Assembly (NCBI GenBank): GCA_963829055.1
Contig: CAWHHI010000004.1
Location: 480,001 to 544,000, forward strand
Length of the DNA stretch: 64,000 nt
Source of the DNA: an uncultured Gemmatimonadaceae bacterium
GTDB taxonomy: Bacteria; Gemmatimonadota; Gemmatimonadetes; Gemmatimonadales; Gemmatimonadaceae
Direction: 5' to 3'
The translations under genes and the position numbers were made by a program. Numbering within the stretch: the first letter of the stretch is position 1; every line of letters starts with the position of its first letter. Of the stretch, positions 87 through 63,478 are shown piece after piece. The notes below the pieces were generated by a model that made no database searches, was not told where the DNA came from, and was given only the letters and a program-made list of their open reading frames with translations.

Positions 87-2478
87 TCACGTCTGCTTGC
101 GACGTTCCACCAGGCGTTCGAGCTGCTGCTTGCCGGACCGATACTGCCACGGCCACCACTGGTCCGTGTAGCCAAGCTCCGCGGCCGCGTGCAGCGTCCA
201 CGCGGGGTCGCTCAGGTGCGGGCGGGCGAGCGCGACGAGGTCGGCGCGGCCCGCGGCGATGATCGAGTTCACCTGATCCGGCTCGGTGACGTTGCCGACC
301 GCGATCGTCGGGATGCGCGCCTCGTTGCGAATGCGATCGCTGAACGGCGTCTGCCACATGCGGCCGTAGACCGGCTTTGCGTCGGGCGACGTCTGGCCCG
401 TCGAGACGTGAATGATGTCGGCGCCCGCCGCGATGAACGCGCGCGCGATGTGCACGGCGTCCTCGCCGGTGACGCCGCCCTCCACCCAGTCCGTAGCCGA
501 GATGCGAACGGACATCGGTCGCTCCGCCGGCCAGACGGCGCGCATGGCGGCGAACACCTCGAGCGGGAAGCGGATGCGGTTCTCGAGCGAGCCGCCGTAC
601 TCGTCGTTGCGTTGGTTGGCGAGCGGCGTGATGAAGCTCGAGAGGAGGTAGCCGTGGGCGCAGTGCAGCTCGACCATGTCGAAGCCGCAGCCGATCGCCA
701 GCTCGGTCGAGCGCGCGAACTGCGTCGCGCACGCGTGTCCATGTCGGCGCGGGACATGTCGCGCGGCACCTGCATGGTCGGACGATGCGGGAGCGGCGAC
801 GGGCCCATGACTTCCCAGTTGCCTTCGTCGAGCGGGATGTCGGTGCCCTCGAGACCGAGCTTCGTCGAGCCCTTGCGGCCGGAGTGTCCGAGCTGGAGGC
901 AGATCTTCGCGGGCGAGCGCTCGTGCACGAAGTCGACGATGCGCGTCCACCCGCGCACGTGCTCGGGCGCGTACATGCCGGTGCAGCCGAACGTGATGCG
1001 CCCTTCCGGCGACACGCAGGCCATCTCGGTGAACACGAGCCCGGCGCCGCCGAGCGCTCGCGCGCCGAGGTGCACGAGATGGAAGTCGTTAGGCACGCCG
1101 TCGACGGCGCTGTAGACGTCCATCGGAGAAACGACGATCCGGTTGGGGAGCGTCGAGATCGCGTAGACGGTAGGGCGTGAACATTGGCGGCGGAGCCGCG
1201 GGAATCGGGAATGGGGAATCGGGAATCGAGGCTGCACGCTGCGCACGAGTCGCACTCGTATTCAGGTCCCCGATTCCCGATTCCCGCTTCCCGATTCCCG
1301 ACTCGCGAACCACCGCTCTACGCCCTTCGAGATACGTCCTGTCGCGCAAGCGCAGGTTCTCATGGCTCACCCGCTGGCTCCGCGTCAGCAGACTGTACGC
1401 GAACTGCTCCGGCGGCAGGTGGATGTAGCGACGCACGTTCTCGAACCACTCCATCGAGTTGCGGGCCGCGTTCTGCAGTCGCAGGGCTTCGGTGCTGCGC
1501 TCGTCCTGGTACCGCTGAGAGCGCAGGCCGTGCAGCGCGCCGTCGTCGTAGGCTCCGGCGCGGCTCGTTCAGCACACGTGACAGCGCGATCGCGTCCTCC
1601 ATCGCCAGCTTCGTTCCCGAGCCGATCGAGAAGTGCGCCGTGTGCGCCGCGTCGCCGATCAGCACGACGTTGTCGTGGAACCACGACGCGTTGCGCACGA
1701 TCGGGAAGTTGAGCCACTGCGAGCCACGGAGGTGGCGCATGTTCGTGAGCAGGCGGATGGCCGTCGAGCCACGGCGCGAACATGCGCTCGCACGTCGCGA
1801 TCGATCTCGTCGGTGTTCATCCGGTCGAAGCCGGCGCTCGACCACGAGCGCTCGTCGCACTCGACGATGAACGCGGACTGTGTGCTCGTCGAATCGGTAC
1901 GCGTGCGCCTGGAAGACGCCGCACTCGTTCTCCACGAACGCGAACGTGAACGCGTCGAACAGGCGCGTGGTGCCGAGCCAGAATGTACTTCGCGTGGCGA
2001 ACATCGATCTCGGGCCGGAAGTGCTCGGCGAATCGCTTCCGGATGCCGCTGTTCACGCCGTCCGCGGCGACGAGCAGGTCGTACTCGCCGAGGTCCCACG
2101 GCGGCGACGTCGGCGGAGTACTCGGTGCGGAAGCGGACGTCGACGCCGAGCTCGATCGCGCGTCGCGCGAGGATCTGCGAGCAGCGTGCGCCGCGCGATG
2201 CCGCTGAAGCCGTGGCCACCCGACGTGATCGTCACGCCCTGCACGTGCACGTCGATGTCGTCCCAGTGCGCGAAGTGATCCGTGATCGCCTGGTACGTCT
2301 CGGGGTCGGCGTCGCGAAAGTTCTCCATCGTCTGATCGGAGAACACGACGCCCCAGCCGAACGTGTCGTCGGCGGCGTTGCGCTCGATCAGCGTGACGTC
2401 GTGCGCCGCGTTCGCCTTCTTCATGAGAAGGGCGAAGTACAGGCCAGCCGGCCCTCCGCCGATGACGACGACCTTCAC
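87..2478 (-). CDS. abmA: Bifunctional anthraniloyl-CoA/salicylyl-CoA monooxygenase-reductase (FAD hydroxylase + OYE-like FMN oxidoreductase), frameshifted in this read
   Basis: The N-terminus has [26 protein letters not shown] and [23 protein letters not shown]. The middle has [19 protein letters not shown]. The C-terminal OYE domain has [21 protein letters not shown] and [16 protein letters not shown] start at 2478, stop at 87; the pieces lie in several frames. Confidence 0.85.
1199..1300. repeat. Heptamer palindromic element (GGGAATC)n-spacer-(GATTCCC)n inside the abmA interdomain linker
   Basis: CGGGAATCGGGAATGGGGAATCGGGAATCG at 1199-1228 and the inverse CGATTCCCGATTCCCGCTTCCCGATTCCCG at 1271-1300. 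Confidence 0.85.
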
Positions 2479-2714
2479 GCAACCTCGCAGGGGAGGGAGG
2501 GGAGATGGAATGGCGTGCTTCCGGTCGCATTCTAGCCGGGGGAGCCGGCCGGGCAAGGAGGGCACGCGCGCGAGCAGCTCGTCCCGTTCGGCTCGCCCCG
2601 GCGACGGCCGCGCTGTAGTGTGGAGTAGATCACGCTTCGTGTTGGCGTCGGGCGATGTGCACGATCGCGTGCGCTGTGCGTCTTATATGGAGTCGCTGCT
2701 CGCCTCAGGTCTCC

Positions 2715-3383
2715 ATGAATCGCCTGCTCTATCTCGCTGGATTCGCCTACATCGCGTTGTGCGCGACGCTGGTCGTGCGCGCGGTTCGCGATCGCCGAGC
2801 CGCCTCCGGCGCTGTGGTCGCGGTGGCTCACACGCCAACTCCCGCGCCGCCGGCGCCGTCGGACCGGCACGTCAGGCGAGCAGTGGTTCGCGGCGATGAA
2901 GCCGTACTGCAACCCGGTCGAGGTCGACGTGCGGACGCGCTATACACCGCCGCCGGCACGGCAGCGAGGGTGCCGGCTATTCCGCCGCGTGCTTCGCCCT
3001 CGCCGGAAAGATCGAGCGCGCTCGGACGATCATCGACGACATGGCCGCCGGCGACCGCGGCGCCGCGGCGAACGTCCTGTTCAACGTCGCCCATCCCGTG
3101 GCCGACGCCGGCGACGATCGCGCATCCGGACCGATGATGGAGCTCGTGCTCGACTACTGGCCGAACAACTACATGGCGCTCTATCACGCCGGCATGTCGG
3201 AGTACTCGCTCGGGCAGACCGCGCTCGCGGACAAGCACCTGCGCGGATTTCTGTCGATGTACACGCGAAGCGGACGGGTTCACCGGCGCCGCGAAAGCGC
3301 GCTGGCGAAGATCGAGGCTGGCACCGCGCCCGCGCCGGACGTGAAGCCTAACGCGGAGCGGGAACCGCACGGCCCGGCCGTGA
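2715..3383 (+). CDS. Membrane-anchored hypothetical protein with TPR-like helices
   Basis: N-terminal TM segment MNRLLYLAGFAYIALCATLVV, followed by helical repeats (YWPNNYMALYHAGMSEYSLGQ). Probable GTGA overlap with the kinase; frameshifted. Confidence 0.55.
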
Positions 3384-5220
3384 GCGGCAGCTACCTCTCG
3401 GCCGGTTCGCTGTTCGCCGGCCGATTCGAGATCGGCCGCGAGCTGGGCCGCGGCGGCGTGTCGGTCGTGTACGCGGCCCGTGACCGAACGGTCGGGCAGG
3501 ACGTCGCGCTCAAGCTGCTCGTGCCGTCGCCCGCCACTGCCAACCAGACGCGCGAACGCATGCGCCGCGAGGTGCACGCGGTGCGCGGCCTCGTGCACCC
3601 GAACATCGTGGCCGTGTACGACTTCGTCGAGGACGGCGCGTACGGCGCCGTCATCATGGAGCTCGTGGACGGCGAGGATCTCGATCGTCGCGTCCGGCGA
3701 CGGCGGGCCGCTCCCATCCGAGGATGTCGCACGCCTCGGTACCGAGGTCGCCGGCGCGCTTGGCGCCGCGCATCGACGCGGGTGTGCTGCACCGCGACGT
3801 GAAGCCGCAGAACATCCTGCTCGACCGCGACGGTCGCGCGCGGCTCGCGGACTTCGGCTCTGCGCGAATGGACGGCGATGCCACCATCACGCGCACCGGC
3901 GGCATGGTCGGAACGCTGGCGTACATGGCACCGGAGACGGTCGCGGGCCGCCGCGGCGACGCCCGCGCGGATGTCTTCGCGTTAGGCATGACGCTGTTCT
4001 ACGCGGCGGCCGGGCGTCTCCCCGATCGGCCGTCGCCACACCTGCCGCTTCCTCCGTCGGCGTCCGGCTACACGCCGATCGCGCTCGGCACCGACGTGCC
4101 CACGTGGCTGTCACATGTCATCGCTCGGGCGACGTCGCGCGGACCCGGCCGACCGCTATCCCACGCCGACGGCGCTCGCCGACGCGCTCACGAATCGCGA
4201 TGCGCGCGCCGCGGCAGCGCTGGCCACGCTGTCACGAGGCCGGTGCGTGCTCTGCGGTGGCCTCGACGTGCTCGGGGCCGGCGTGTGTCCGGCGTGCGCG
4301 AGCGCGTCGCAGGTGACGGAGACGCTCGTGTTTCTGGAGCGTCCGCGGAGCGCGTTCGAGCGTGACGCAGCTACTCGAAGCCACGGCCACGCTGCTCGGT
4401 AAGGACGTCCAGCCTGAGATGCTGGCGTGGTCGCGACTGGTGAGCGGCCGCTCATGACGCGCACCACGCGCGGCCGAGCGAGAACGTGCTTCGCTTGTTA
4501 GGCGAGCGCGGGCTCCGCGCGCGAACGCTCTCGGATCGCGATGTGTGGCGCGCGCTGCCGCCGGCGTACGTCCTGATGGTGGGCGGCGTCGTCCTGTCGG
4601 GCATCGTCGGGGGCCTGATTGCCGACAATGCGTTGCTTCGCCGCCGCCGGTCCGGTTGCGCGCTGGTGCTGCTGGTGGCGGCGCGTTGTCGATTCGACGG
4701 CCGATCCTGATCGCGGACCGGCGCCCGTCCGCATTCTCGGACCGGACGCGTGCGCGAGTCGTGGAGACGTTCGCCGCCATGCCCGCCGGGCGCGGCGCGT
4801 TCGCTCCTCGCGGACGTCGTCCGGCGAGGCCAGGCGGTGCGTCGCGCGCTTGCGTTAGGCAGGACTGCGTCAGGCACTGGCGAGACGGTCGATGACCTCG
4901 TGGACGCGGCGTGCGCGTCGGCACGCGACCTTGCGGCGCTCGACGCGAGCCTCGCGCAGTTCGACGCGCGAGCGGGACCGCGACGATGGCGACCCGAAGT
5001 GGCTGGACAGCCTCGTCGAGTGCGAGCGGACGCGCGACGGCGTGGTGCAGCGTCTGCTCGATGCCGTGACGGTGCTGGGTCAGCTCGACATGCAGGCGAT
5101 TCGCGGCACCGACGAGTACAACGGCCCGGCTCGGCGAGCTCGTCGCCGAGATTGGTGAGCGAGGTCAAGGCGCGCTCGGCGGCGCGGGAGGAGATGGAGA
5201 TCCTGTTGGACAGGCCTTAG
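3380..5220 (+). CDS. Hanks-type Ser/Thr protein kinase with CxxC..CxxC zinc finger and TM/coiled C-terminal region
   Basis: ELGRGGVSVVY, VALK, HPNIV, LHRDVKPQNILL, LADFG, GTLAYMAPE, DVFALG; then RCVLCGG..VCPAC. Ends in TAG at 5220. Confidence 0.85.
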
Positions 5221-5248
5221 GAGCGGAGGCTTGGGCAAGGAGGCAGCA

Positions 5249-5798: not shown

Positions 5799-5856
5799 GG
5801 CGTTGGCCCTCCCCACGTTAGGCGTGCCGCTGTCCGGTGCGTCGCTCATACTTCGC

Positions 5857-6637
5857 TCACGGCGCGATCGCGATGACGCGCAGCGGACTTCCGCTTCCGT
5901 TCACGATCTTGAGCGGTGCGGCGATGACCACCGCCCCCGTCGCTGGAAGCTGGTCCAGATTGCACAGGCTCGCCAGACCGAACTTGCCGGCGCCGTGCAT
6001 CGTCGTGTGGTTGGGGAACGGCGGGTCGAATCGTCCGGCCTGACCCGCGTCGGTGCCGATCGTCTCCACGCCGACGCCGAGGACGTCCCGGTCGTGCGCG
6101 AGCAACTTCGACGTGTCCGTGGTGGAAGCCGGGCGCGTGCGGCCCGTCCTCGGCGACGTTCAGGAATTCAGCCGCCGTCTTTCGCTTGCTCCAGCCGGTA
6201 CGCAGCAGCACCCACGCATTCCGTCGGCACGCGGCCATGCTCGCGCTCCCACCGCTCGAGATCCTGTGGCGTGAGCAGATAGTCCGGGTTGGCCTCGACC
6301 TCGCGCGTGACGTCGATGACGCACGCCGGCCCGACGAAGCGGCGCGGCCGGGATCGTGTCGCAGGCGTTGTTAGGCAGGTCCTTGCCCGTCACCCAGTGC
6401 ACCGGCGCGTCGAAGTGCGTGCCGGTGTGCTCGCCCATGTGGATCGTGTTCCAGTACCAGGCAGGCCCTTTGTCGTCGTAACGCGAGATGACGTCGATCG
6501 TCACGCCGGGCGACGGCCGCGAAGATCGGCGGCAGCCCGATCACCGGCGTGTCAGGCCCGAGCGGCTGCGTGAGGTCGATGATGCGGAGTCGGCCGGCAT
6601 CGAGCTCGGCGACGAGTTGCTGCAGGATGGTGGACAT
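5857..6637 (-). CDS. Cyclase-family (KynB-like) amidohydrolase, isatin hydrolase-like subgroup
   Basis: IIDLTQPL, GPAWYWN..GEHTGTHFDAPVHWVTGKD, WVLLRTGWS, FLNVAEDGPHAPG, GVETIGTDAGQ, APLKIVNGSGSPLRV. Its ATG overlaps the upstream TGA (TGATG at 6635-6639). Confidence 0.85.
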
Positions 6638-7230
6638 CAGGTGGCGGGTGACGAGGAACGGGATGCGGCTGCCTTCTTGAGCCAGCGCTGGAACTCGAAT
6701 CGGTTCTCGAGCAGCGCGAGGTCGGTCACGAAGCCGGCCGGGCCCTTGGCCTCGACCTTCGCGACGATCGTCGTCAACTCCTGCGCGGCGAGCGCCGCGT
6801 CGAACGCGGCGACGAACTCGTCGAGCGTACGAACGGTGACGGTGCGCGGAATGCCGGCCGCGGCGGCCATGCCCGCGATGTCGCTGCCGGTGGACGTCGC
6901 CGTCGGAAATCCGCCCACGGACAGCAGGCTCTCGTTGTCGAACACGACGTGCACGAGATTGCGCGGGCGATAGCGCGCGAGCGTCGTTAGGCCGCCGAGG
7001 TTCATGAGGATGGACCCGTCACCGTCGAAGACGACGACCGAGAGCTCCGGCCGCGTGAGCGCGACGCCGAGCCCCATGGACGACGCGAGTCCCATGGCGT
7101 GCTGCAGGTAGAAGAAGTTCGGCCGGTGCCCGATGGCCTGCAGCTCGGCCGCGACCGCGCCCATGATCGTGATGACCACGCGGTCGGTGAGCTGCTCGTA
7201 GACCGATTTCAGCGCGTCGAGTCGGAGCAT
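6637..7230 (-). CDS. ThDP-dependent decarboxylase beta subunit (ComE/phosphonopyruvate decarboxylase-like)
   Basis: Intact ORF with MGLASSMGLGVAL and the ThDP-binding motif DGDGSILMNLG...VFDN. Confidence 0.85.
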   Translation of the reverse strand: MLRLDALKSVYEQLTDRVVITIMGAVAAELQAIGHRPNFFYLQHAMGLASSMGLGVALTRPELSVVVFDGDGSILMNLGGLTTLARYRPRNLVHVVFDNESLLSVGGFPTATSTGSDIAGMAAAAGIPRTVTVRTLDEFVAAFDAALAAQELTTIVAKVEAKGPAGFVTDLALLENRFEFQRWLKKAAASRSSSPAT

Positions 7231-8100: not shown

Positions 8101-9479
8101 CTACGGCGCCCCAACCCGATGAAGGACGTCGGTCAGTAGCCACCACACGCCCACGAGCAGCAGTGCGCCGGGGATGACCCACCGAATCCACAAGTACAGC
8201 CAGTTCGGCACCGGTCGCTCGCCGCCCGCCGAGAGCGCCTGAATGGCGTCGCTCCGCTTCATTGCCCAGCCGACCGTCACCGCCGCCACCAGCGCGCCGA
8301 GCGTCTGCATGCCCGAGCCGAATGTCAGGTCCCACGGTACGAAGATCTGGTTGTTGATCATCGGCGGGATCGCGATGAGGAACGCGACGATCGCGACGAG
8401 CCACACGACGGTTCGTCTCGACAGTCGCGTGTTGTCGGTCAGCGCGGCGACGAGCACCTCGAACGCCGCGAGGCCCGACAGGTATCCTGCGCCGAGCAGG
8501 CTGACGAAGAACAGCAGGCCGAACAGCCATCCAGCTGGAATGGCCGCAAACACCTTCGGCAGCGTCGCGAAGATGAGCCCGGGTCCGCTGTTCGGCTCGA
8601 GGCCGAGCGAGAACACCGCGGGGAAGATCGCGAACCCGGCGAGCAGCCCGGAGAACGTGTCGCCGAACGCCGTCCACCACGCGTTCGCCGTGAGGTTGTC
8701 CTTGCTCGGTGAGGTACGAGCCGTACACGACCATGAACGTGCCGCCGAGCGAGAGCGAGAACACGGCGTGGCCGATGGCGGCGATCATCACGCGCGGCGT
8801 GAGGTCGGCCACCTGGAACTTGAGGATGTACCACTCGACGCCCGCCCAGGCGTTAGGCAGCGTCATCGCGCGGGCGATGAGGATGACGAGAATGACGCAC
8901 AGCAGCGGGATGACGATCCGCGCCGCGCGCTCGATCCCCCGGCGCAGCCCGCGCAGCAGGATGAACGCACACGAGAGCGTCACCGCCGCCGTGCAGCCCA
9001 TCTGCAGCACGCAGCGACTTGGCGGAGACTCCCGTGTCGGGCGGCAGCACCGCGGACGCATCGAACCCGACGTGCACGGCGCGAGCGATCTCGCCCAGGG
9101 CGTAGTAGACGACCCAGCCGATCACGTTGATGTAGTAGCCGGTCGCCGCCACGACGATGACGAAGAAGAACCACCCGACCGCCTTTCCCGCGGGCAGCCC
9201 TGCGCGCTCGAACGCACCCACCGTGCCGCGCCGCGTGTACCTGCCTAACGCCGTCTCCGCCATGAGCCCCGGCACACCGATCACCAGCACGACCAGTACG
9301 TAGAACAGGACGAACGCCGCGCCGCCGAAGCGGCCGACCATGTACGGGAATCGCCAGACGTTGCCGAGCCCGAGCGCGAAGCCGATCATCGTGATGATCG
9401 CGCCGAACCGCGACGCGAACGTCTCGCGCGCGCCGCCCGCGTCCGTGAGGCCGGAGATCGTTGTCGTCGTGTCGGTCAT
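8101..9479 (-). CDS. Sodium-dependent transporter, NSS/SNF (LeuT/TnaT) family
   Basis: FALGLGNVWRFPYMVGRFGGAAF, EXALG, FSLSLGG..MVVYGSY, GPGLIFATLP; about 12 hydrophobic segments across frames. Confidence 0.85.
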
Positions 9480-10892: not shown

Positions 10893-11800
10893 ATGCACGC
10901 TCGTCCTGCCGTCTTCTCACTTCTGCTCCTGGCACCGCTCACCGCTGGCGCGCAGGCGATCGGAATCGGCCCGGTCGTGTTGCAGCTTCCGGCGAGCACG
11001 CGCGCCATCGGCTTCGGCAACGCGTACGTTGGCGTGCGTGAGCCCGAGGCGGTGTTCTACAACCCGGCGCAGCTCGGCGTCCGGCCGGGCGTCGCGATAT
11101 CGGCGGAGCGATACGGTTCAGCGTCGACGGCGGGCGCGTTCGCGAGCACGTACGTGTTCGGCCCGATCGGCTTCGGAGTCGGCGTGCAGATGCTCGACTT
11201 CGACTCGGGAAGCCCGGGCTATCCGGGCGCGTGCGCCTAACGGGGAGCAGCTGCTCGCACGCCGGCCAGTTCTCCGCGTCGAGCCTGGTCGCGGCGGTCG
11301 CGCCGAGATGGCGTACAAGGGCATTCGCTGGGGCGTCACTGGGAAGGTGGCGCGAGGACCGGGTGGCGGGCGAGCGCGATGGCGTGCTGCTCGCGGACGT
11401 CGGCGCCGCCAAGGAGATCGGACCGGTGACGGCCGGAGTGACGGTGCAGAACCTCGGCACGAACCCGAAGATGGTCGGCACGTCGGCCGAGTTGCCGATG
11501 CGCGGCGACGCTCGGCGTCGCGAGCGGTGGGCTTCCGGTGGGCCCACTCGATCTCGCCCTGAGCACGGCGGTGTCGGTCCGTCGCGGCGGCCGAGTGTCA
11601 CCCGCGGGCGGCGTGGAGCTCGGCTACATGCCGATCGAGGGCGTGACGTTCGCGGGCCGCGTCGGTGGCCGGCTGCCGGAGAAGAACGCGGAGGCGCCGA
11701 TCACGCTCGGCGCGATCTTCACGTTCGATCGCGTGTCGATCGACTACGGGTTCGAGCCGTACCAGGGGCCGGCAGTGGGCATCGGTGGGCGTGAGGATTC
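10893..11800 (+). CDS. PorV/PorQ (FadL-like) outer-membrane beta-barrel protein
   Basis: Signal peptide followed by LPASTRAIGFGNAYVG..AVFYNPAQL, GVTVQNLG, and a C-terminal SIDYGF. The 3' end is uncertain. Confidence 0.65.
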
Positions 11801-11980: not shown

Positions 11981-13937
11981 TTACGCCAGATACGCCGGAT
12001 CGATCGCCGAGAATCCGATGTCGTCGACGACCACCTGCCCGACTCGCGTCCGGTCGAACACCAGTCGGATCGACGTCACTCGCGACGCATCGAAGCTGCC
12101 GTGCCACGCGCGAATTCCTTCACCGGCATCACGTACGTCTGCAGCACCAGCTCGTACGGATTCGGAAACGCCGTTTTGTCACGTCCCTTTCGACGATACA
12201 CCGTGATCTCGAGCGGACGGCGCGGCTTGCCGAACTGACTCAGCGCCACGCGCGCCGTCCCGCCCGACGCGTCGACGAGCTCCACCGATCAGATCCATCG
12301 GTGTCGTGTCCGGCGTGGCCTTCTTTTCGTCCGGCTTCTTCTTGTTCGCCGGCGAGCTTCGCAGCGGGCTTGCCCTTCGCGCCTGACGAGTCGGCCTTTT
12401 TCGTCGTGTCCGGCTCCGTCTTGCGCGGCCCCGGCGTGGCCGGTGTCGGCGCCAGCGAGAGCACGACCGACGAGCCCTCGCCGACGTTCCACGCTGAGCG
12501 CAGCGAATCCGAGATCGTCACCGAGTAGCTCGCTGGAGCGCGCGGCTTGGTCGTGTCCTTACCCACCGGCTTGTTGTTCCAGCCTAACCAGACCGCGTTC
12601 GTCCCGAGGTCGCTGTTGCGCGAGCGGATCGGAATCGGCGCTTCCTTCCAGCCCGAGAGGCTGTCGGCGGAGATCGTCACGCCCGGCACCGAGCCGGTGG
12701 TGACGTCGACATCCTCGTCGAACCCGGCGAGCGCGCGGAAGCCGTTCTCCGAGAAGCGCGTGATGTACATCGTCTTCGGCAGCCACTGGCCGATCGTGCG
12801 GTGGTCGCGGAACATCGGGAGGTACTCCTTCTTCCCCTTGAGCGTCGCCTCGAGAAAGCCGCCGATGTACACGCGGCCGAACTGCCGCTGGTCCTCGGGC
12901 GGAGATGAGCGCGTCGAGCGCGAGCCAGCGACCGCTGCGCGGGCCGTTGTCCTTGTTGCCCCACACGGTGTTCCACTGCCCGTGATTCGCGCGGTACACG
13001 TACACCGCCGATTTGAACCACGGCCGGCCGTCCGTGAACTTGATGCGCTGATACTGCCGGAGCCCCGAGAACGCGGAGACGTCGCCGTCGTGCGAGCCGT
13101 GGAACACGAGGTAGTTCACGTTCTCGACCGGCGTCGGCTTGCCGGCCGGCTGATACTGCCCGTCCACCGGCGCGATGGCGACGATCGACTTGATGTCGAA
13201 GTTGTAGTCGAACTTGATCGTCGCGTCGTCGGGATAGTGCGACAGCCGGTTGAACGCCGCCGCGACCGGCGACGGCTTCGCCGCCGCGCGAGTGGCCCAT
13301 GAGCGCGATGTTGCTCATGTCCACCTTGTGGTAGAACGGGCTGCCTAACGAATCGTTCCACGTCCGCCAGCGCTCGAGATGCTCGAGCAGCAGCCAGCCG
13401 CGCCCGTCGTTCTCGCCGCGCAGATTGCCGTTGATGAAGTTCTCGTCGACCGACACGAGAATGAACCCGCGCGACGCCAGGTGCTGGCCGAGGTAGCCGT
13501 AGCCCGGGTCGGAGAAGTCCTTCATGTCGTGGTTGCCGTGCACGATGAGCACGAGCGGAAACGGCCCGTCGCCCTGCGGATACCACACGCGCCCGTTGAT
13601 CGGCAACTTCTTGAAGTCGAAGCCCCAGTACTTCGACCGGCTCTTCGCGATCTCCGGCGGCGCCGACACCATCGGCGATCCGTCGACCGTTTGCGTCTTG
13701 AGCGTCACCGAGTCGCGGAACGCGGCTCGGTGCTTGTCCGTGCCGCTGCCGTAGACGAGCGTGCGGACGGTGAACGTTCCGGGCTAGGCCGGGATTCGGC
13801 GCGCTGATCGTCTGATGCGACAGCACGACGGGCGAGTCGTCCGTCGTCAGCTTCATCGGCTGTTTGATGCACGCGCTGACCATGAACGCGAGCGAGAATC
13901 CGGCAAACGAAACCGCGGCGCGGCGGTTGAGCGGCAT
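11981..13937 (-). CDS. Secreted alpha/beta hydrolase (chlorophyllase/PAF-AH-like), probable lipoprotein
   Basis: Lipobox-like VSAC; GPFPLVLIVHGNH, GYGYLGQHLASRGF, nucleophile elbow GHSRGG, HGSHDGDV, ANHGQWN. TAA at 11981. Confidence 0.75.
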
Positions 13938-14768: not shown

Positions 14769-14782
14769 GTTAGGCGCCTAAC
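14769..14782. repeat. Back-to-back inverted pair of the iterated heptamer (GTTAGGCGCCTAAC)
   Basis: Perfect 14-bp palindrome about 45 bp downstream of the peroxiredoxin stop. Confidence 0.8.
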
Positions 14783-14866
14783 GCCACGCGGAGGGCCCGG
14801 GTCCACCACCATCCACACGAACCGCTTCGACCCGACACCCAGAACCCAGCGTGTGAACTGATTCGA

Positions 14867-15075: not shown

Positions 15076-16321
15076 TCAGAAGTGCGCGTTGATGAGCGGG
15101 AGCCAGCGCGTCGCGCGCGGGTTGTTGTCCGCACGGTTCAACAACCCGAGCTGCACGCCATGCAGCCGGCGTGCGTCGTTGAAGATCCCGATCGACAGGC
15201 CGTGCTGCTCCCGCACGGAGTTGTACGCCGCCACGGACGCACCGCGCAGCCGAATCGTTCGCAGCTGCAGCGCCGACAGCGAGATGCCGGACACGCTCGG
15301 GCTCCGAACGCGATAGAGCCCCATGAGGAGACCCGCGGCAGACGATCGCGCGAGGAGCGTCCCGGCCGTGAGCGTCACCCACCGTACATCGCCGTCCGCG
15401 ACCATAGCGAGCCCCGCGACGGTGACGCCATGGACGTCGGCGCCTGACGTCAGAGCGCCACCGGTGATGGTCAGCCCCTGCACGCCGCCGGACGACACGA
15501 CCCCCAGGCCACCAACCGTGACGCCACTGATGCCCGTTTCGCCCAGGACGGCAAGCCCGCCGAACTGAACGCCGCGCATCCGACCCGACGAGAACGTCGC
15601 GAGGCCGCTCGACGCCGACGCCAGTCATGTCACCGCGCGCCGCGACGCCGAGGCCGGCCGCGGTGAAGCCGGTCGTCGGCCCTTCGCTCACGACCGCGAG
15701 ACCACCCACCGTGAAGCCAGTGAGCCGCGTCTGAATCACGGCCGCGAGACCGCCGACCGTCACGCCGCGCGCCCCGTTCGAGGCGGTCACCGACGCGCCC
15801 GCGATGGTGATGCCGGTGAGCGCGCCACGCGACAGGACCGCGAGCCCCGCGACGTTGATCCCCGTGACGTTGCTGTCAGCAGTCACGGCGAAGCCGCTCG
15901 CCGTCACGCCAGCGATGCTCCCATGCGACATGACCGCGAACCCGCCAACGCCGAGTCCCGTTAGGCTCCGATCCGCGCGGACGGCCCCCACGCCCACCGC
16001 AATCCCGTTGAGCCGCGCCGCGCCCGGCGCGATGAGCCCGAGCGCGAGACCGTTGATCTCGGCTTTCGGGTTCTGGCCCGGAGCCCACAGCGTCACGTTG
16101 ATGCCGTTGATCCGAACGACGTTCGCGTCCCGAAAGTTCAGTCGGATTCCTGTCAGGCGCGGCGAGTTGCCGATGCTCAGCCCGACGTGATTGATCGCGA
16201 GGTCCAGGCTCGGCCCCGTTGTAGAATCGGGACGGGCAGGTGCCTGTGCTGCAACGAGACGCGGTGAGCCGAGCGCGGCGATAGCGACCAGACCTGCAGT
16301 GAAACGAAGGGCGTGGCTCAA
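15076..16321 (-). CDS. LA_2272-like glycine-rich repeat surface/outer-membrane protein
   Basis: Signal peptide, many ~17-aa repeats of the type G.TVGGLAVV...G, and C-terminal LHGVQLGLLN..LPLINAHF ending in Phe. Confidence 0.65.
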
Positions 16322-23282: not shown

Positions 23283-23412
23283 GACGGCGTGTCGAATGTG
23301 GAGTGCGGGTGCCTAACGACGATCGGCCGACGGCTGCGGCCGTGCCGGTTCGTGGCAGCGTGTCTGTTCGCCTGCTGGTGTGCGCGCCGGCGTCCGTGGC
23401 GCGCAACGTCGG

Positions 23413-26725: not shown

Positions 26726-27567
26726 TCACCGATTGATGACCGACGACAGCACGTCGAACAGCGACTTGTTGCGAGGAGGCTCGCCGTGCTCCAGGCGATC
26801 GAGCGCCTGTTCGAGCGCGAGCTGCGCACGCTCCACGTTCGAGCGATACGACTTCGCGACGGCGGCGAATCCCGCGCCACCTATCGCGGCCCAGACGCCG
26901 CCGATCACCAGGGCGATCGGCATCGACGATCCAGGCATCATCGCCGCCACGGTGACGAGCCCGCCGCCGCCGACCAGGCCTGCACTCGCGATCGCGCCGC
27001 CGCCGATCACACTGCGGTGTCGCGTCTCGCCGAACGATGCGTCGAGGCGGACGAGCACGCGCGCGTCGTCGACGGGGACCACCGTCGCGCCAACCTCATC
27101 CGCGCGCGCGAGCGCGTAGCTTCGGCCTCCGACGCCGAATCCGCGCTTGATGCTGCCGACGAATGTCGCGACTCGCCTCCCAGGTGACACGCTCGGTGAA
27201 CCGACGGCGGACGCGAAGCGACTCATCGCTCTGCATGTAGCGGTCGATACGAGCGAGCACGTCAGCCTGCGAACCGGTGATCACGCGCTGCGCCCACGCC
27301 GACGTCGGGCCGAATACGCCGGATGACACGCCCTGCGGGCTCGGTCACGGCGACACGCGTCGCTTCCTCGGCGATGGCCTGCCTAACGTGTTCCGGCGAG
27401 AGCCCGACTTCCTTGCCCAGCTCGACGAGCTGGTCCTCGGTCATCGATTCTGTGGCGTCGCCGACTCCCGCCTGCAACTCGCTGGCGCGCGCGAGCACAC
27501 GCTCGAGCGCGGCGCGGTCGAGCGAGCGGCCCGGAGGAGGAGTTGGTTTGTCAGGCAAGTCAGTCAT
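26726..27567 (-). CDS. Hypothetical membrane protein
   Basis: LERVLARASELQ..LGKEVGLSPEHVRQA N-terminal domain, two TM helices near the C-terminus; frameshifted. Confidence 0.6.
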
Positions 27568-46150: not shown

Positions 46151-46155
46151 ACTGC

Positions 46156-47805: not shown

Positions 47806-49975
47806 ATGAGTGAACTTCCAGCTCTGATCCAAGCCCTTCGCTCGGCGGTCACTTCGTCGATCGCCCAGGTGGCCCAGCCGGATACCGCGGCGACCCCTTG
47901 GGCCGTTCACATCGCGTCCGTCGCGGTGATCGTAGCGGTCGTCACCTATCTGTGGACCGTTCGGCTGCGGCGGGTGGTCCGTGAGCGGACGGCCGAGCTC
48001 GAGTCGAAGCACGAAGAGATGGAGCGTGAATCGGCAGACCGACGACACGCGCTCGAGGCGCTTCAGGTCGCGGACAAGCGGCTGCACATGGCCATGGAGG
48101 CTGCGGAGCTCCGGACATGGCACTGGGATGTGGCGTTGGACCGATTCGAGGTGATGGGCGAACGGACATCCGAGCTCGGTCCTCCACTCCCCGACCCGGG
48201 CGTCGGTCTCGAGCGATTTCTGAAGTCGCTCCACCCAGAGGATGTTGGCGCGGTGCGCGCGGCGATCCGCCGGACGATGGAGACCGGCGACCTGCTCGGC
48301 ACTGACTTTCGCGTGCTCTTGCCTGACGGGACGATCCGCTGGAAGGTCGGCCGAGGATGCGTGGTACGCGACGCGAAGAACGGAATCACGTCGCTCGTCG
48401 GGGTCGTGCTCGATGTGACCGATCGGGTCCGTCGTGACGAAGAGCTCCGCCTCAGCGAGGAGCGTTACCGCGAGCTGTTCGAGAACGCGAACGACATCAT
48501 CTACACGCACGACCTTGCCGGCACCTTCACGGGGATCAACAAGGCGGCCGAGCGCGTGCTCGGTTACTCCCAGGATGACGTGCCGCGCATCACCGTACAG
48601 GACGTCGTCGTTCCCGAGCAACTCGAGCTCGCGCAAGGCATGGTCGCCAGGAAGGTTGCTGGCGACGTGTCGCGGACCGAGTACGAGCTGGATGTGCTCG
48701 CGAGGAGCGGCCGGCGTGTGACGCTCGAGGTCAACACGCGCCTCGTGAAGCGCGACGGGGTGATCGTCGCCGTTCAGGGCATCGCGCGCGATGTCACCGA
48801 GCGAAAGCGACTCGAGTGGCAGCTCGGGCAGTCGCAGAAAATGGAGGCGGTCGGCCAGCTCGCCGGCGGGATCGCGCACGACTTCAACAACCTGCTCACC
48901 GCGATCCTCGGCAACGCGCAGCTCGCGCAGTTCGACAAGGCGCTCAGTCGAGATCTTCAGGAGTGTCTGTCGGAGATCGCCAGCGCATCGCAGCGCGCAG
49001 CCGCGCTGACGCGGCAGCTGCTGGTGTTCAGCCGACAGGAGCAGATCGATCGTCGTCCGGTGAGCTTGCCGGCCACGCTCGGCGACTTCATGAAGATGCT
49101 GCGTCGCATCATCGGCGAACACATCGACGTTAGGCTCACGGTCGCGCCTGACGTGCCCGCGGTACTCGCGGATCCGGCGCAGATCGAGCAGGTGGCGCTC
49201 AACCTCGCCGTCAACGCGCGGGACGCGATGCCGGCCGGCGGGCGACTCGATGATCGAGATCGATCAGGTCGTCCTGGCCGAGCCGCACGGACCGGCGGCG
49301 TCGGCGGTGCCAGCCGGTCGATACGCCCGCGTGCGATTCACGGACACCGGCCGCGGCATCCAGTCCGATGTGCGGCAACGGATCTTCGAGCCGTTCTTCA
49401 CCACGAAGCCGGTGGGCGAGGGGACGGGCCTCGGACTGGCGGTGGTGTACGGAATCGTTAGGCAGCACGATGGCTTCATCGAGGTCGCCAGTGCGCCGGG
49501 CGAAGGCACGCGATTCACCGTGTATCTTCCGGCCGTGAACGCGGCGATCCCGGCGGCGCCCGATGTCCAGCACGTGGGAGTCTCGGGAGGACGCGAAACG
49601 ATCCTGATCGCCGAGGACGAGCTCGCGCTGCGACGCCTCACGGAGCGTCTACTCACGGGGCTTGGCTACACGGTGCTCTCGGCCGAGAATGGCGAGGAAG
49701 CCATCGAGTTGTTCGCGAGTCGGCGCGACGAGATCGACCTGCTGCTCCTCGACATTGTCATGCCGAGGAAGGGTGGCCGCGCCGTGTATGAGGCCGTGCG
49801 CGCCGCCGGGAGCGATGTGCCGGTCGTGTTCATGACCGGCTACAGCGCGGAGGTGGCGCCGCACGCGCTCGGCTCGGAGACCGGGTGCAGGGTGTTCTAC
49901 AAACCGTACGATCTCGACGCGCTCGCGGCAGTGATTCGCGAGGTGATCGAAGGTGCTGGGGCCAGCCGCGTCTAG
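47806..49975 (+). CDS. PAS-PAS hybrid sensor histidine kinase/receiver (CckA-like)
   Basis: [50 protein letters not shown], receiver IAEDE..LLDIVMP..MTGY..KP. Confidence 0.92.
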
Positions 49976-54279: not shown

Positions 54280-54364
54280 GACCATCGTTAGGCACGCCGC
54301 AGGTCTTTCGCCGCACGGCGAATAACGCGACTTTCTCAGCTCCTCGACCGCTGAGATCTCCTGC

Positions 54365-55409
54365 ATGCTCGGGTTTCGTCGCGCCGCATTCGTCGTTGCC
54401 AGCGTGGTGTTGGTCCACACCGCGCACGGCCAGGGAAGCGAGCGCCTCTTCTACTACGTCGATCGCGAGGACAGCTACCGGTCACTCGTTGCGCACATCG
54501 ATCAGATCACCGTGCTCGGCCCGCAGGTCTACACGGTCGACAGCCTCGGACTCGTGTACGGATCGCTCGATCGCCGAGTGATCGAGCTGGCCAAGGCGCG
54601 CGGGGTGAAGGTCATGCCGCTCGTCGTGAACGAGGGGTTCAATCAGCCGGCGCTCCGTCGGCTTCTCGCCGACACCGCCGCCCGCTCACGATCGATCGCC
54701 TCGCTCGTCGAGCTGTGCCGACGAAACGGCTACTGGGGCATCCAGTTCGACGTCGAGAACGTCAACATCCAGGACCGCGACCGCTTCACGGCGTGGTTCA
54801 CGGACGCCGCTCGGGCGCTGCACGCGGGTGGCTTCACGGTCAGCGCCGCGATCGTGCACCAGACCGACGACCTGGCCGGCCCTACCGGCTATCATCGCTT
54901 TCTCGCCGACAGCTGGCGCACCTTCGATATCGCGGCGTTAGGCAGGGCGGCGGACTTCCTAGTCGGTGATGAGCTACGACCAGCACACGCGCCGCACGCC
55001 TCCCGGGCCAGTGGCCGGGATCCCGTGGATGCGCTCGATCGCCGATTACTTCCTGCGCTACGTCCCGGCGGACAAGCTGTCGCTCGGCATTCCGCTCTAC
55101 GGCGACTACTGGTCCGCGCGCTCGGACCCGACGCCGGAGCGCGCGCGCACCAGCGCGAATTCCGTGAGTTGGTTCTGGGGTTCCGGTCTCGCCGAGCGCA
55201 ACGGCGCGACGATCAAGTGGGACGACGTCCAGCAGGTGCCGTACGCATCGATCGAAGTCGGCGGCACGTTCGAGTGGCTCTTTCTCGAGAACGCGCGCAG
55301 CTTCGGCGCGAAGGTCGCGCTCATGAAGGAGAAGAAGCTGCGCGGCTTTTCGGCCTGGGTGCTCGGGCCCGAAGATCCCGCGATATGGGGAGTACTCGGA
55401 AAACGATGA
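54365..55409 (+). CDS. Glycoside hydrolase family 18 (YaaH/SleL-like)
   Basis: Signal peptide, GYWGIQFDVE, MSYDQH..PGPVA, LGIPLYG, LRGFSAWVLG.ED. Confidence 0.85.
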
Positions 55410-58305: not shown

Positions 58306-58732
58306 GCAAGAGTATCGCTTCGTCGGCAGACTGCATCTCGTTCGGGACGGCCATACGGTAAGGATCGGCTCGTGCAAGCTGCGTCTGCACCGTGCGACGA
58401 GTCGATCCGTCGATCCTCAGCATCCGTTCACCCGTTCGTCTGAGCGGCCTGAGCCCGTCACGTTCGGGTCGCCTCGCTTGGGCGCGTCAACGTTAGGCAA
58501 CGGCCGGTCGTGCCCGCGTAAGGCGTGCTCGCCGCTTCCGGCAATGTTGCGATACCAACTAGCAAGTCGATAGCAACGGGCTGATCCATTCGCGCCGAGA
58601 TCTATCGCATCGAGCTTCGCTGTACCTGGCTCGGCCATTCGTGACGGGCACAACGTTTGCCAAACACGTACCCACCTCGGCGGGAACGGGGCATAGCGAA
58701 GCGCGATGCACTACGCATCATCAGGAGGCAGC

Positions 58733-59038: not shown

Positions 59039-60264
59039 CTACTCGTACCGCAGCGCCTGGATCGGGTCGAGCATCGCCGCGCGTCGCGCCGGCCACACGC
59101 CGAACACCACGCCGACTGCCGCCGAGAACATGAACGCCATGATCACGGCCGACGACGAGATCTGCGTGTTCCACTGGAAGCTGCGGCTCAGCATGTAGGC
59201 CGTACCGGAGCCGACGGCGATCCCGACGATCCCGCCGAGGATGCAGAGCACGATCGCTTCGATCAGGAACTGCGACGAGGATATTCGTCCGCGTGGCGCC
59301 GAGTGCCTTCCGGACGCCGATCTCGCGCGTCCGCTCGGTGACCGACACGAGCATGATGTTCATGATCCCGATGCCGCCGACGACGAGGCTCACCGTCGCG
59401 ATGCCCGCGAGCAGCAGACCGAACACGGCCGTCGTCTCGCCTAACGTGTTCAGGAAGTCGGACTGATTTCGGATGTTGAAGTCGTCTTCCTTTCCCGGCC
59501 GCAGGCGGTGCTCACGACGCAGCACCTTCTGAATCTCCGCCATCGCCAGCGGAATGTCGGTCTTCGCTGCTCGCGAGCACGTTGATCGAGCGAAGCCGGT
59601 CGGTGCCCATCGCGCGGAAGCGCGCGGTGTTGAGAGGAATGAGCACCTGCTCGTCGGGATTCCCGAAGCCCGACGCCCTGACCCTTGCTCTTGAGCACGC
59701 CGATCACGTCGAACTGAATGCCGCGGATGCGCACCGTTCGCCGACGAGCGCGATCGGGTTGTCGAATCCGAGCAGCTGCGCCACCGCCGGCCCGACGACC
59801 GCGACTCGGGCGCGCGCGGCGTCGTGACGCCGGGGTGAACATCTGCCCGGCCGTCGAGCTCGTACTTCCGAACCTCGAGGTAGTTCGGCGTCGTGCCGAT
59901 GATGGACGTGTTCGCGTTCCGATTGTTGTACTGAATCTGCAGCTGACGCTGCATCTCGGGCTGCACAGCGAGTGATGTGCTCGGCGTGCTCCTCGATTGC
60001 CTTCGCATCGTCCATCGTCATCTTCTGCTGATCGCCGCTCCGAATGCCACCCATGCCGAACGCCTGCCCCGGCATGACCGTCAGCAGCGTCGTCCCTAAC
60101 GCGGAGATGCGGTCCTTCACGGCCTTCTGCGCGCCGTTGCCGAGCGCGATCACGGCGATGACCGCGGCGACGCCGATCACGATGCCGAGCATCGTGAGGA
60201 GCGAGCGCAGCTTGTTCGCCCTGAGCGCGCCGAGCGCGACGCTGATGATCTCGCCGATGAGCAT
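59039..60264 (-). CDS. MacB/FtsX-family ABC permease
   Basis: NKLRSLLTMLGIVIGVAAV, SLVVGGIGIMNIMLVSVTERTREIGVRKALGA, PARRAA.LDPIQALRYE. Confidence 0.9.
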
Positions 60265-62157: not shown

Positions 62158-62179
62158 GAGGTGGCGCTGATGCGCCTGC

Positions 62180-63478
62180 TCACATGTCCTTGCCGGTCAG
62201 CGTTTCGATCTGTGCCTTCGCCACGCGCGCATCGAAGCGCGCCTGGATCAGCGCGGAGCGCGCCTGGTTGAGCGTGACCTGCGAGCTGAGGACGTCGAGG
62301 AACGTGGACGCGCCGAGCTCATAACGACGCTGCTGGACCCGCAGGTCTTCGTCCGCCGCGGCGACCGACGCGAGCTGGATCTCCACCCGTTGCTGGGCGG
62401 TGCGGAACGCGCTGAGGTACTGCGTGAGCTGCTGCTGCGCGGCGAGCCGCGTGTCGCGGAGCAGTGCCTGCGCGTTGTTCTCCGTCACTCGAGACCTGAC
62501 GATCTGCTCCTCGCGCGCGCCCTGATTGAAGAATGGGAAATTGACATTCAGGCTCACGCCTTGGGAGTACGCAAACGGGTCGCTCCAGCCGAGGTATGGG
62601 TTGTAACCACTGCCGCCGCGATTAAACCGCAATGCGACGGTCGGCAGGTACGACGTCAACGATACACGTGCGTTCGCCCGTGCCGCGGAGTACACCTGTT
62701 CGGCCGTTTGCACCGCCGGTCCGCGAAGCGCGGCCGCTGCGATCTGCTCGCTGTCGGCGGCGAGCTCCATCGCCTCCGTCGTATCGCCCGCGGTGGCAGT
62801 GACGAGGAACGGCGTTGCGACGAGCCTGGTGAGCGAGGCGTTCGCGACGTTCAGGTTATTGCGAGCCTGCAAGAGCGCGAGCTGGCCGTTGCCGACCTGA
62901 ATGATGGCGCGCAACGAGTCGGACTTGGTCGCCGCGCCGGCGGCCACTTTGGCGCTCGCGGTCTTGAGCTGCTCCGTCGCCTGGTCGAGTTGGGCCTTTG
63001 CCGCCGACTCCGCTTCGCGCGCGGCGAGCACCGCGTAGTACTGCTGCTTCACGTTCAGCGACACGTTGTACTGCTGCAGCGTCTCGTTTGCCTCCGAAGC
63101 GTTGACGTTCGCCTTCGCGCTCTGAAGCCGAAACAGGCGGTTGCCGCCGTCGAACAGGTCGACGTTCATCGTCAGGCCCGTGGTGTACGATGTCTTGCCG
63201 TTGATCGAAATAAACTCGTTCCTCTCGCTCAATCGGTTGCCGCTCTGCTTGCTGGCGCCCGAGCTGAGCGACACCGTCGGAAGGTATGACAAGTACGCCG
63301 AGCGCACCGAGGCGGCGTTGGACCGCGTGGTACCCGCAGCCTGCACGGTCGTCGGCGAGTTTCGCTGCGCGAGCTGTACGGCTTCGCTGAGGCTAATAGG
63401 GTGTGCTACCGAATCGGCGCCCGCTTGAGCAGCGAGCGCCGTGGGGAACAGCAGAATCGTTAGGCCGAAACGTTTCAC
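62180..63478 (-). CDS. TolC-family outer-membrane efflux protein
   Basis: Intact ORF: ISLSEAVQLA, YLPTVSL, DLFDGG, YELGASTFLDVL. Confidence 0.9.
   Translation of the reverse strand: MKRFGLTILLFPTALAAQAGADSVAHPISLSEAVQLAQRNSPTTVQAAGTTRSNAASVRSAYLSYLPTVSLSSGASKQSGNRLSERNEFISINGKTSYTTGLTMNVDLFDGGNRLFRLQSAKANVNASEANETLQQYNVSLNVKQQYYAVLAAREAESAAKAQLDQATEQLKTASAKVAAGAATKSDSLRAIIQVGNGQLALLQARNNLNVANASLTRLVATPFLVTATAGDTTEAMELAADSEQIAAAALRGPAVQTAEQVYSAARANARVSLTSYLPTVALRFNRGGSGYNPYLGWSDPFAYSQGVSLNVNFPFFNQGAREEQIVRSRVTENNAQALLRDTRLAAQQQLTQYLSAFRTAQQRVEIQLASVAAADEDLRVQQRRYELGASTFLDVLSSQVTLNQARSALIQARFDARVAKAQIETLTGKDM

Follow-up and report, generated by a model that had tools for sequence, protein, structure and literature searches.

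A hyper-abundant, strand-balanced octamer in the genomes of a Gemmatimonadaceae genus, a possible tag for DNA uptake or self-recognition

The DNA analyzed here, called the window in the following, is a stretch of 64 kb (contig C4, positions 480001-544000) of the assembly G000 (7.78 Mb in 20 contigs, 66.7% GC, estimated to be 86% complete), which represents a soil bacterium of the family Gemmatimonadaceae. The family assignment agrees with LeuS, which in a sister species shares 70-74% of its residues with proteins recorded under Gemmatimonadaceae, Gemmatimonas sp., and Roseisolibacter sp. The genes of the window share a short non-palindromic word, the 8-mer CGTTAGGC. Its 7-base form GTTAGGC/GCCTAAC occurs 40 times exactly in the window, whose GC content is 65-69%, with 22 copies on the plus strand and 18 copies on the minus strand. 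In dinucleotide-preserving shuffles of the window, the mean was 2.10 copies (standard deviation 1.38, maximum 6), and none of 100 shuffles reached 40. The complete 8-mer makes up 35 of the 40 copies, compared with a shuffle mean of 1.08, and seven more copies differ only in the last base (GTTAGGD), which is not significant alone as 3.5 such copies were expected. All of these positions, strands, and counts had been listed in an earlier note on this DNA that was made from the letters alone, and we recovered every one of them. A frame-tolerant coding segmentation, which we used to assign the copies to genes, placed 34 of the 40 in coding regions, in agreement with the view expressed there that most copies lie inside genes and in different frames.

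We aligned the first 20 kb of the window to five further genomes of the genus (G001 to G005), and conservation is therefore given for the copies of this part. Read as CCT AAC (P-N), the word is found in minus-strand genes opposite the plus-strand copies at 1087..1094 (exact in 5/5 genus genomes), 5816..5823 (exact in G001, G002, and G005), and 8851..8858 (a gene for an SNF symporter; exact in 4/5), and in plus-strand genes opposite the minus-strand copies at 3346..3353 (protein kinase region; present in 0/5 of the aligned genomes) and 11235..11242 (exact in 5/5). A plus-strand 7-mer at 6370..6376 gives CCT AAC AAC (P-N-N) in a minus-strand gene. The reading GCG TTA GGC (A-L-G) occurs in plus-strand genes with the plus-strand copies at 3980..3987, where the 7-mer from 3981 belongs to V-F-A-L-G-M-T (exact in 4/5, with CGTTAGGT in the fifth), and at 4853..4860 (specific to G000 in comparison to the five aligned genomes). 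It occurs in minus-strand genes with the minus-strand copies at 9243..9250 (exact in G001, G002, and G005), 17835..17842 (exact in G001 and G002, with ACCTAACG in G004), and 18677..18684 (exact in G001, G002, and G004). Other residues precede L-G at the plus-strand 7-mer TGTTAGGC at 4497..4503 in a plus-strand gene (TTG TTA GGC, L-L-G), at the minus-strand 7-mer at 12582..12588 in a minus-strand gene (TGG TTA GGC, W-L-G), and at the minus-strand 8-mer at 13343..13350, also in a minus-strand gene (TCG TTA GGC, S-L-G; exact in G001, G002, and G005). Two plus-strand copies are read from minus-strand genes with a CTA codon, namely 6985..6992 in a gene for a thiamine pyrophosphate-dependent (TPP) enzyme (GGC CTA ACG, G-L-T within L-G-G-L-T-T-L, the example at 6986; exact in 4/5) and 15959..15966 (AGC CTA ACG, S-L-T; exact in 5/5). 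The remaining two copies of this part are non-coding and lie head to head: the plus-strand 7-mer at 14769..14775 and the minus-strand 8-mer at 14776..14783 form the left and right halves of a 16-nt near-palindrome, TGTTAGGC followed by GCCTAACG (14768-14783), in the spacer between a plus-strand AhpC/TSA gene and a minus-strand open reading frame (ORF) at 15079-15624. Such pairs are very few genome-wide.

In the rest of the window, CCT AAC (P-N) is encoded opposite the plus-strand copies at 33083..33090 and 34847..34854 in minus-strand genes, opposite the minus-strand copy at 23311..23318 in a plus-strand frame assigned by the segmentation, and opposite the minus-strand copy at 37259..37266 in a plus-strand gene of the asparaginase family (G-G-L-P-N-E-D); the minus-strand 7-mer at 38950..38956 again gives CCT AAC AAC (P-N-N) in a plus-strand gene. 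TTA GGC follows GCG (A-L-G) at 32252..32259 (minus-strand copy and gene) and 54936..54943 (plus-strand copy and gene), TCG (S-L-G) at 34050..34057 in a methyltransferase gene (Methyltransf_33; both on the minus strand), and ACG (T-L-G) at 39073..39080 (both plus) and 59439..59446 (both minus). CTA ACG is preceded by CGC (R-L-T) at the plus-strand copy 26477..26484 in a minus-strand 3-hydroxyacyl-CoA dehydrogenase gene, by TGC (C-L-T) at the minus-strand copy 46154..46161 in a plus-strand gene, and by GGC (G-L-T) at the plus-strand copy 63458..63465 in a minus-strand outer-membrane efflux gene. GTT AGG (V-R) is read at 27381..27388 (minus-strand copy and gene), at 49128..49135 in a histidine-kinase gene, and at 49456..49463 (plus-strand copies and genes in both cases). 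Two copies lie in leuS. The minus-strand copy at 42914..42921 corresponds to CGC CTA ACG (R-L-T) in G001 and G014 and has two extra bases alongside in the G000 assembly, and the plus-strand copy at 43997..44004 is read as GGC GTT AGG CGC (G-V-R-R, with the 7-mer from 43998 in S-G-V-R-R-F-L), the same residues being encoded by GGC/GGG GTG CGC CGC in G014 and G008. The codon contexts that had been quoted for 3981, 6986, 37259, and 43998 were thus all correct. According to the segmentation, the minus-strand copy at 29138..29145 and the plus-strand copies at 39632..39639, 54286..54293, and 58491..58498 are non-coding.

The genome-wide count bore out what the window suggested. CGTTAGGC occurs 5,004 times in G000, compared with 131 copies expected under an order-1 and 257 under an order-3 Markov model (38 and 19 times expectation), and ranks first among all 8-mers under both models. 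GTTAGG accounts for 7,103 of the 7,392 TTAGG pentamers of the genome. The 12 bases on either side of CGTTAGGC carry no more than 0.13 bit per position, which indicates a discrete word rather than a segment of a longer repeat, and the three-base GC periodicity of the flanks continues in phase through the word. Variants with one exchange at an end position are enriched (TGTTAGGC 10-fold and CGTTAGGT 13-fold over expectation), and all variants at word positions 2 and 7 are found at 0.2-0.4 of expectation. The strict core is GTTAGG, with C or T being tolerated at either end of the word. In this Gemmatimonadaceae genus, CGTTAGGC is real as a genome-wide word, strong, and actively maintained.

Genome-wide, 82% of the copies are coding, and the other 18% lie in the non-coding 12.6% of the genome, where the density is thus about 1.4 times higher. 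All four permitted frames are used (xCG TTA GGC with 1,609 copies, xxG CCT AAC Gxx with 1,185, xGC CTA ACG with 787, and xxC GTT AGG Cxx with 501), and the two frames that would contain a stop codon (TAG or TAA) hold only 23 of 4,105 coding copies. Copies in sense orientation (2,110) occur about as often as those in antisense (1,972). When synonymous codons were permuted such that every protein sequence was kept, 112-139 copies (codons drawn from a genome-wide pool) or 211-287 copies (codons permuted within the segment) were obtained in comparison to 4,013 observed copies, and the enrichment, which is 14- to 36-fold, therefore survives a codon-preserving shuffle. The word contains 49% of all TTA codons, 20% of the CTA codons, and 13% of the CCT codons, and the share of TTA codons in particular shows that the underlying force overrides codon usage. 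At the level of peptides, the word encodes 23% of all [SPTA]-L-G, 21% of [SRCG]-L-T, 59% of x-P-N-[VADEG], and 11% of x-V-R-[LPHQR] sequences. As the dipeptide Pro-Asn reaches 1.44 times its expectation genome-wide, protein sequence has been shifted, too. The earlier note had proposed a sequence-specific system that shapes the genome, acting as an uptake signal, as a site for a nucleoid protein, or as a methyl-directed motif. The first part of this proposal is well supported by the codon and dipeptide data, and none of the three options was singled out by our analyses, in which neither ComP nor Vsr was found in the rich genomes searched.

Orthologous genes indicate how the copies originate. 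In leuS, the genus uses GGC GTT AGG CGC for G-V-R-R, which relative to G014 and G008 amounts to three synonymous changes toward rare codons and toward the word, the kind of change that the earlier note had suggested looking for. Some other word sites differ from the relatives by amino-acid changes, and up to three substitutions per word site were found. As orthologous sites differ by substitution, the copies arise by point substitution and not by insertion. We also considered that the word could be an 8-bp insertion or an in-frame stop that breaks genes, since many ORF ends coincide with copies. This was rejected on the basis of the unbroken third-codon GC phase, the mere 23 of 4,105 copies in stop frames, and the orthologues that differ by substitutions only. 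The fragmentation of genes is caused by general single-base indels in the assembly and not by the word.

As the G000 assembly is indel-rich, we examined whether its errors have a bearing on the word. The segmentation detected 7,582 same-strand frame switches, 139 of them in the window, where genes are split into pieces. Contigs from four independent metagenome studies (four runs) cover 30/30 bins of window positions 3300-13299 and, agreeing with each other, contradict the window at single bases (10860, 11230, 11352, and 11503). Frame switches of the segmentation at 11220, 11352, and 11499 lie within 10 bases of the latter three of these sites, and the boundary nearest to 10860, at 10818, is a change of strand. 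Further examples of indel sites in the window, where the contigs likewise agree with each other against the assembly, are 5780, 7342, and 8038, and gene calls made from the database record will be badly fragmented. Among the 40 contig-window substitutions listed of a total of 594, none lies inside a copy of the word, which is weak support for its correctness. Near 1547, G000 reads CG-TAGGC where G002 and G005 keep the intact word, showing that assembly errors destroy copies and do not create them. In the aligned first 20 kb, the word is identical at 10-11 of 13 sites in G001, 11 of 13 in G002, 9 of 11 in G005, 6 of 11 in G003, and 4 of 12 in G004, compared with an overall DNA identity of 77-81% and with only 16-22% identical sites among all 8-mers (20-22% in G001, G002, and G005). 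The word is also present at some of the orthologous sites in G014. Frame switches were found within 10 nt of copies in 3.5% versus 2.3%, and 18 of 157 G000-specific indels lie within 25 nt of copies, compared with 4.3% expected (window positions 1-20000 and 41000-45000). We do not accept either of these results as a sign of base modification at the word, as both are confounded, the former by the placement of switches by the segmentation and the latter because G000-specific copies sit in badly aligned stretches.

The word has no strong replichore polarity. Genome-wide, 2,547 plus-strand copies stand against 2,457 minus-strand copies, and across 142 segments of 50 kb a 50:50 split was not rejected (chi-square p 0.29). 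The strand of the word relates only weakly to GC skew (Spearman rho 0.18); segments of positive skew contain 420 versus 363 copies, and segments of negative skew 640 versus 659. The first matches listed for G061, G114, G151, and G165 were all on the plus strand, and strong polarity in other genera was therefore considered and rejected, as in about 100 kb of each of these genomes the strands are mixed (23/17, 36/38, 27/23, and 18/30, respectively). The earlier note had named three outcomes that would tell against its view or change it (no enrichment over a codon-preserving shuffle, loss of the motif as a basecalling artefact, and strong replichore polarity), and none of them was observed. Copies also keep a distance from each other. 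In comparison to the same number of sites drawn from all peptide-compatible positions, gaps of up to 100 bp are rare (0.66% versus 5.9%, the lowest of 200 simulations being 4.85%), as are gaps of up to 200 bp (2.95% versus 10.95%) and of up to 500 bp (16.9% versus 24.4%). Whether the two copies of a pair share a strand or not makes no difference to this deficit, which gradually disappears beyond about 300-500 bp, suggesting that a second copy nearby adds little. Together with the position weights described above, the orientation-blind spacing points to a reader that would bind duplex DNA in either orientation and require the strict GTTAGG core.

Two aspects that were absent from the earlier note concern the occurrence of the word elsewhere: many related genera do not have it, and it equals the R' core of integron attC sites. 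All seven genomes of the genus are rich in the word (2,501-5,112 copies). Across 151 sampled genomes of the family, which represent 68 genera, its density ranges from below 1 to about 1,300 per Mb. By a hand tally with rounded genome sizes, at least 100 copies per Mb are present in about 46 of these genomes (24 genera) and 20 or fewer in about 95. Three unpublished genomes (G013, G048, and G094) contribute word-poor or intermediate rows to these tallies and G013 also one row to the LeuS tree mentioned below, and no claim depends on them. One genus shows both states, with 974 and 941 copies per Mb in G062 and G152 versus 13 in G115. Rich genomes contain about three times more one-off variants of the word than poor genomes, and the poor relatives hold the word at about Markov expectation (100-kb samples). 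We considered G115 as a recent loser of the word and found no excess of remnants, as it has 2,227 matches with at most one mismatch versus 4,914 for a control word; G008 and G012 are similar. In a quick LeuS tree, the genus forms one clade (support 100), the rich G010 groups with the poor G008 (97), and the rich G014 pairs weakly with the poor G012 (81). This tree was calculated without G000, G004, G006, and G025, and the aberrantly long branches of G024, G015, G011, and G029 probably stem from wrong-frame ORFs. The patchy densities and the pairings in the tree indicate that the same spelling was gained or lost repeatedly. Loci of 10 to 22 kb from named Gemmatimonadaceae records are almost all word-poor, and no cultured rich strain is among them.

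Outside the window, two blocks at contig starts of G000 are devoid of any copy, C6:5441-55037 (50 kb) and C11:7377-46790 (39 kb). They encode housekeeping functions (aroC, the trp operon, ftsK, glnA, edd, and folD), and second copies of these genes are found elsewhere in G000 at 47-59% amino-acid identity. In view of the housekeeping content and the duplicate copies, we rejected the idea of horizontally acquired islands. Chimeric joins, or contaminating DNA of an unrelated organism, are their more probable origin, and the blocks are therefore not used here to argue that the word is absent from foreign DNA.

The few copies in word-poor relatives are clustered on one strand and follow each other at about 600 bp. 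Contig C95 of G021 is a cassette array whose attC sites of about 105 nt start with GCCTAAC and end with (C/T)CGTTAGGC; 14 of the 16 attC 3' ends in its first 12 kb have the exact word. The consensus of attC sites is GTTRRRY for R' and RYYYAAC for R''. Accordingly, the word corresponds to the R' core plus the preceding C of the attC sites of this order. Classical cassette arrays, in which the attC sites are about 105 nt long and highly conserved, were seen in G021:C95, G021:C80, G019:C3, and G029:C1. In G021:C95, positions 1-196 are duplicated exactly at 7919-8114 (196 nt), and in G021:C80 the run of words abuts a fragment of an integrase gene. G000 itself has an integron integrase on the minus strand of C20 (208041-208958), which scores at the family cut-off of 265.7 bits. 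Around it (C20:197000-218500), a run of words lies on the minus strand to the left and on the plus strand to the right, several of these copies have attC-like contexts (GCCTAACGCC-CAG/AAG-TTGA), and there may be cassette arrays on both sides of the integrase. An integron integrase over the cut-off was found in 18 of 31 relatives, many of them poor. Poor genomes with this gene are G007, G008, G009, G011, G012, G016, G115, and others, and in the genus that shows both states, rich and poor species alike have it. It was not found in the rich G002, G004, and G010 and is broken into three frames in the rich G014. Among the 5,630 copies of the 7-mer in G000, attC-like pairs of R'' and R' number 118 (both strands counted) versus 80 in a control arrangement, apart from the C20 locus there is only a handful of attC-like hairpins, and the other purine variants under GTTRRRY occur at 0.2-0.7 of expectation. 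One review names Gemmatimonadota only in its list of integron-carrying phyla (PMC8618304). According to a preprint (10.1101/2022.09.11.507474), integrases can place cassettes in genomic attG sites that are double-stranded and have a GWT core.

The interpretation that we favor, tentatively and with clearly less than even confidence, is that the word is a tag for DNA uptake or self-recognition that a putative sequence-specific protein reads as double-stranded DNA. Such tags are the DNA uptake sequences (DUS) of Neisseriaceae, which are read by the minor pilin ComP, and the uptake signal sequences (USS) of Pasteurellaceae. Like DUS and USS, the word is short and non-palindromic, occurs about once per 1-1.5 kb with balanced strands, is used in several frames against codon preference, is spaced more evenly than chance, is conserved among related species, and has enriched one-off variants, so that the likeness noticed from the window holds in density, symmetry, frame use, spacing, and conservation. 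We infer a reader protein, an uptake step, and a molecular drive: fragments bearing the word would be preferentially taken up and recombined, point changes toward the word would spread by the drive, and the drive would continue to about one copy per 1-1.5 kb, where a close second copy adds little. The genome encodes ComEC, DprA, a secretin, and five prepilin-type proteins, as well as a weak ComEA-type HHH_3 match (35 bits, in an open frame of 81 amino acids). In a sister species, two pilin-like genes lie beside pilM, pilO, and a pilQ-type secretin gene, followed by aroC, aroK, and topA.

Several results weigh against the interpretation as an uptake tag. The TIGR00426 model of ComEA had no match in the 86% complete G000. 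HHH_3 (31/31), the secretin (30/31), and prepilin domains (31/31 genomes) are present in rich and poor relatives alike; together with ComEC and DprA, they occur throughout the order and thus say nothing on who is rich, and a 380-amino-acid protein of the pilus cluster is likewise found in 115 of 151 family genomes, both rich and poor. The ComP-like pilin envisaged in the earlier note did not turn up, as ComP_DUS (PF16732) had no match with E values up to 0.01 in G014 or in any of the seven genomes of the genus. The data do not support assigning the word to the ComP/DUS system, and a non-homologous receptor would be compatible with this result. Unlike the DUS dialects, the same word is patchy among and within genera, and no substitute hyper-abundant 7- to 9-mer appeared in 100-kb samples of five poor relatives. 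Inverted pairs, which serve as terminators in the case of the Neisseria DUS, are not in excess genome-wide. The identity with the attC core is not predicted by an uptake model. No literature was found on a Gemmatimonad together with an uptake sequence, and among the matches listed for natural transformation in Gemmatimonadota, none concerned competence as judged by title and beginning of the abstract. In the literature searched, a published description of the word was found neither with the 8-mer nor under uptake sequences, natural transformation, or integrons and attC in the phylum, in agreement with the earlier remark that no such system is described for this lineage; judged by title and beginning of the abstract, the papers listed for the 8-mer appear to deal with unrelated topics. 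Altogether, none of the candidates that we compared by presence and absence (integrase, Vsr, ComP_DUS, HHH_3/ComEA, secretin, prepilin domain, and the 380-amino-acid protein) separates rich from poor genomes.

Among the other explanations, a binding site for a double-strand DNA system without a role in uptake, such as a nucleoid or chromosome organizer, a self-DNA marker for defense or degradation, or a non-polar recombination or repair signal, is a doubtful but serious possibility. Selection for roughly regular coverage of the chromosome would then maintain the word, which would fit the orientation-blind and more than randomly even spacing, the strong conservation, the strict core with tolerant ends as known from protein sites, the higher density in non-coding DNA, and the fact that no uptake receptor was found. 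However, there was no candidate protein among the families searched, known sites for nucleoid proteins, for segregation, or for the guidance of FtsK occur in far smaller numbers or are polar, and for an essential chromosome function it would be odd that near genera do not have the word and that one genus is mixed. A tie to integrons, in which the integrase or a related Xer-type tyrosine recombinase reads the copies as attG-like landing sites or titrating decoys, or in which they are a by-product, appears unlikely to us. It is attractive insofar as the R' end of attC sites in the order's cassette arrays has exactly the letters of the word, an integrase fragment lies beside the run in G021:C80, the G000 integrase has same-strand runs of the word on both sides, and the occurrence of one word in several lineages suggests a reader that is common to the whole order; the action of integrases on double-stranded attG sites that is reported in the preprint cited above (10.1101/2022.09.11.507474) would also fit. 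Yet the presence of the integrase does not track richness, and copies generally do not have the attC structure: more than 95% of them stand alone in ordinary genes without the R''-L''-L'-R' hairpin of about 55-140 nt, with unconserved flanks, only 118 versus 80 paired sites, and no co-oriented arrays except for the locus at about 197-218 kb of C20. In addition, copies arise by in-frame substitution without insertion scars, the other purine variants of GTTRRRY are not enriched, and thousands of good integrase sites in genes would be expected to be harmful. Even less probable is a combination of both ideas, in which the tag took its spelling from the attC core and rich Gemmatimonadaceae preferentially import DNA with cassette ends, such that transformation is coupled to cassette capture by the integron. 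Incoming single strands could fold and be captured by the integrase, and the copies in housekeeping genes would be a by-product of the uptake bias on DNA of the own species. The gene of the reader would be mobile or readily lost, which would account for the coming and going of an identical word among genera. No known system explains why a single spelling, identical to the attC core, is reused in such a patchy manner.

The word could also be created by a mutational or repair bias without any reader, for example by a methyltransferase combined with very-short-patch repair, as has been discussed for the cyanobacterial HIP1 and is known in a mild form at CCWGG in E. coli. We regard this as improbable. 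The fast change of the distribution between species would suit an enzyme pair that is gained and lost, one-off variants at core positions are below expectation, and the confounded excess of indels near copies (18 of 157) could hint at base modification that disturbs long-read base calling; against this, Vsr (PF03852) was not found in 8/8 rich genomes (G000, G001, G002, G005, G091, G062, G152, and G014, with completeness values of 83-97%) and was found in the poor G012, patch repair drives a single position whereas here eight are fixed with up to three substitutions per site, and mutual repulsion of the copies is not expected from mutation alone. HIP1 (GCGATCGC) resembles the word as a hyper-abundant octamer that lies in genes and is conserved beyond neutral expectation, but HIP1 is a palindrome and the word is not. 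A polar signal on one strand relative to replication, as in the case of Chi or KOPS (FtsK-orienting polar sequences), is very improbable. Chi and KOPS are likewise over-represented 8-mers that are read by a DNA-processing machine, and the rho of 0.18 with GC skew and the 420 versus 363 copies in segments of positive skew go in this direction. However, the segments of negative skew are balanced at 640 versus 659, the chi-square test was not significant, both strands carry copies in about 100 kb from each of four other rich genomes, pairs on opposite strands show as strong a spacing deficit as pairs on the same strand, and the enrichment is far greater, with a density far above that of Chi. The probability that the word is a sequencing or assembly artefact is next to nil. 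The assembly is indeed poor, with its many frame switches, fragmented window genes, and single-base disagreements with the metagenome contigs, but five further assemblies of the genus, and in part also G014, carry the word at the orthologous positions, and the word respects reading frames and encodes residues that are conserved in relatives. Moreover, the errors break copies, and no difference lies inside a copy among the 40 listed of 594.

Sequence-tagged DNA uptake is not known beyond two proteobacterial families, and HIP1 has remained unexplained for decades. If the interpretation as an uptake tag is correct, the word would be a third and very strong example, in an abundant and little-studied soil phylum, and in any case the force behind it recodes a fifth to a half of the compatible peptides. 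The switching of the trait between close relatives (about 950 versus 13 copies per Mb in one genus) offers a comparative route to the gene of the reader that was never available for USS. The identity of the word with the attC core is a hint that genome-wide signatures may be linked to the cassette system by which resistance genes are spread. As a sharp lineage signature, the word also flagged the two probably foreign blocks inside contigs of G000. What the present analysis adds to the window-based description are the orientation-blind spacing deficit, the position weights, the contrast within a genus, and the negative tests of integrase, Vsr, and ComP.

Two minor observations concern other repeated sequences. 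In the poor relative G029 (C1:300001-400000), GCTGGTGG, the spelling of the E. coli Chi site, is among the most over-represented 8-mers with 56 copies versus 8.2 expected, to which codon effects possibly contribute. In the window, the frame of leuS contains a palindromic element of about 90 nt at 42739-42830 that consists of GGGAAC repeats followed by GTTCCC repeats. It matches dozens of places on both strands in G001 and G005, including the intact leuS of G001 with 838 codons for amino acids, and it may be an in-frame intragenic mobile palindrome of the kind represented by the Rickettsia palindromic elements.

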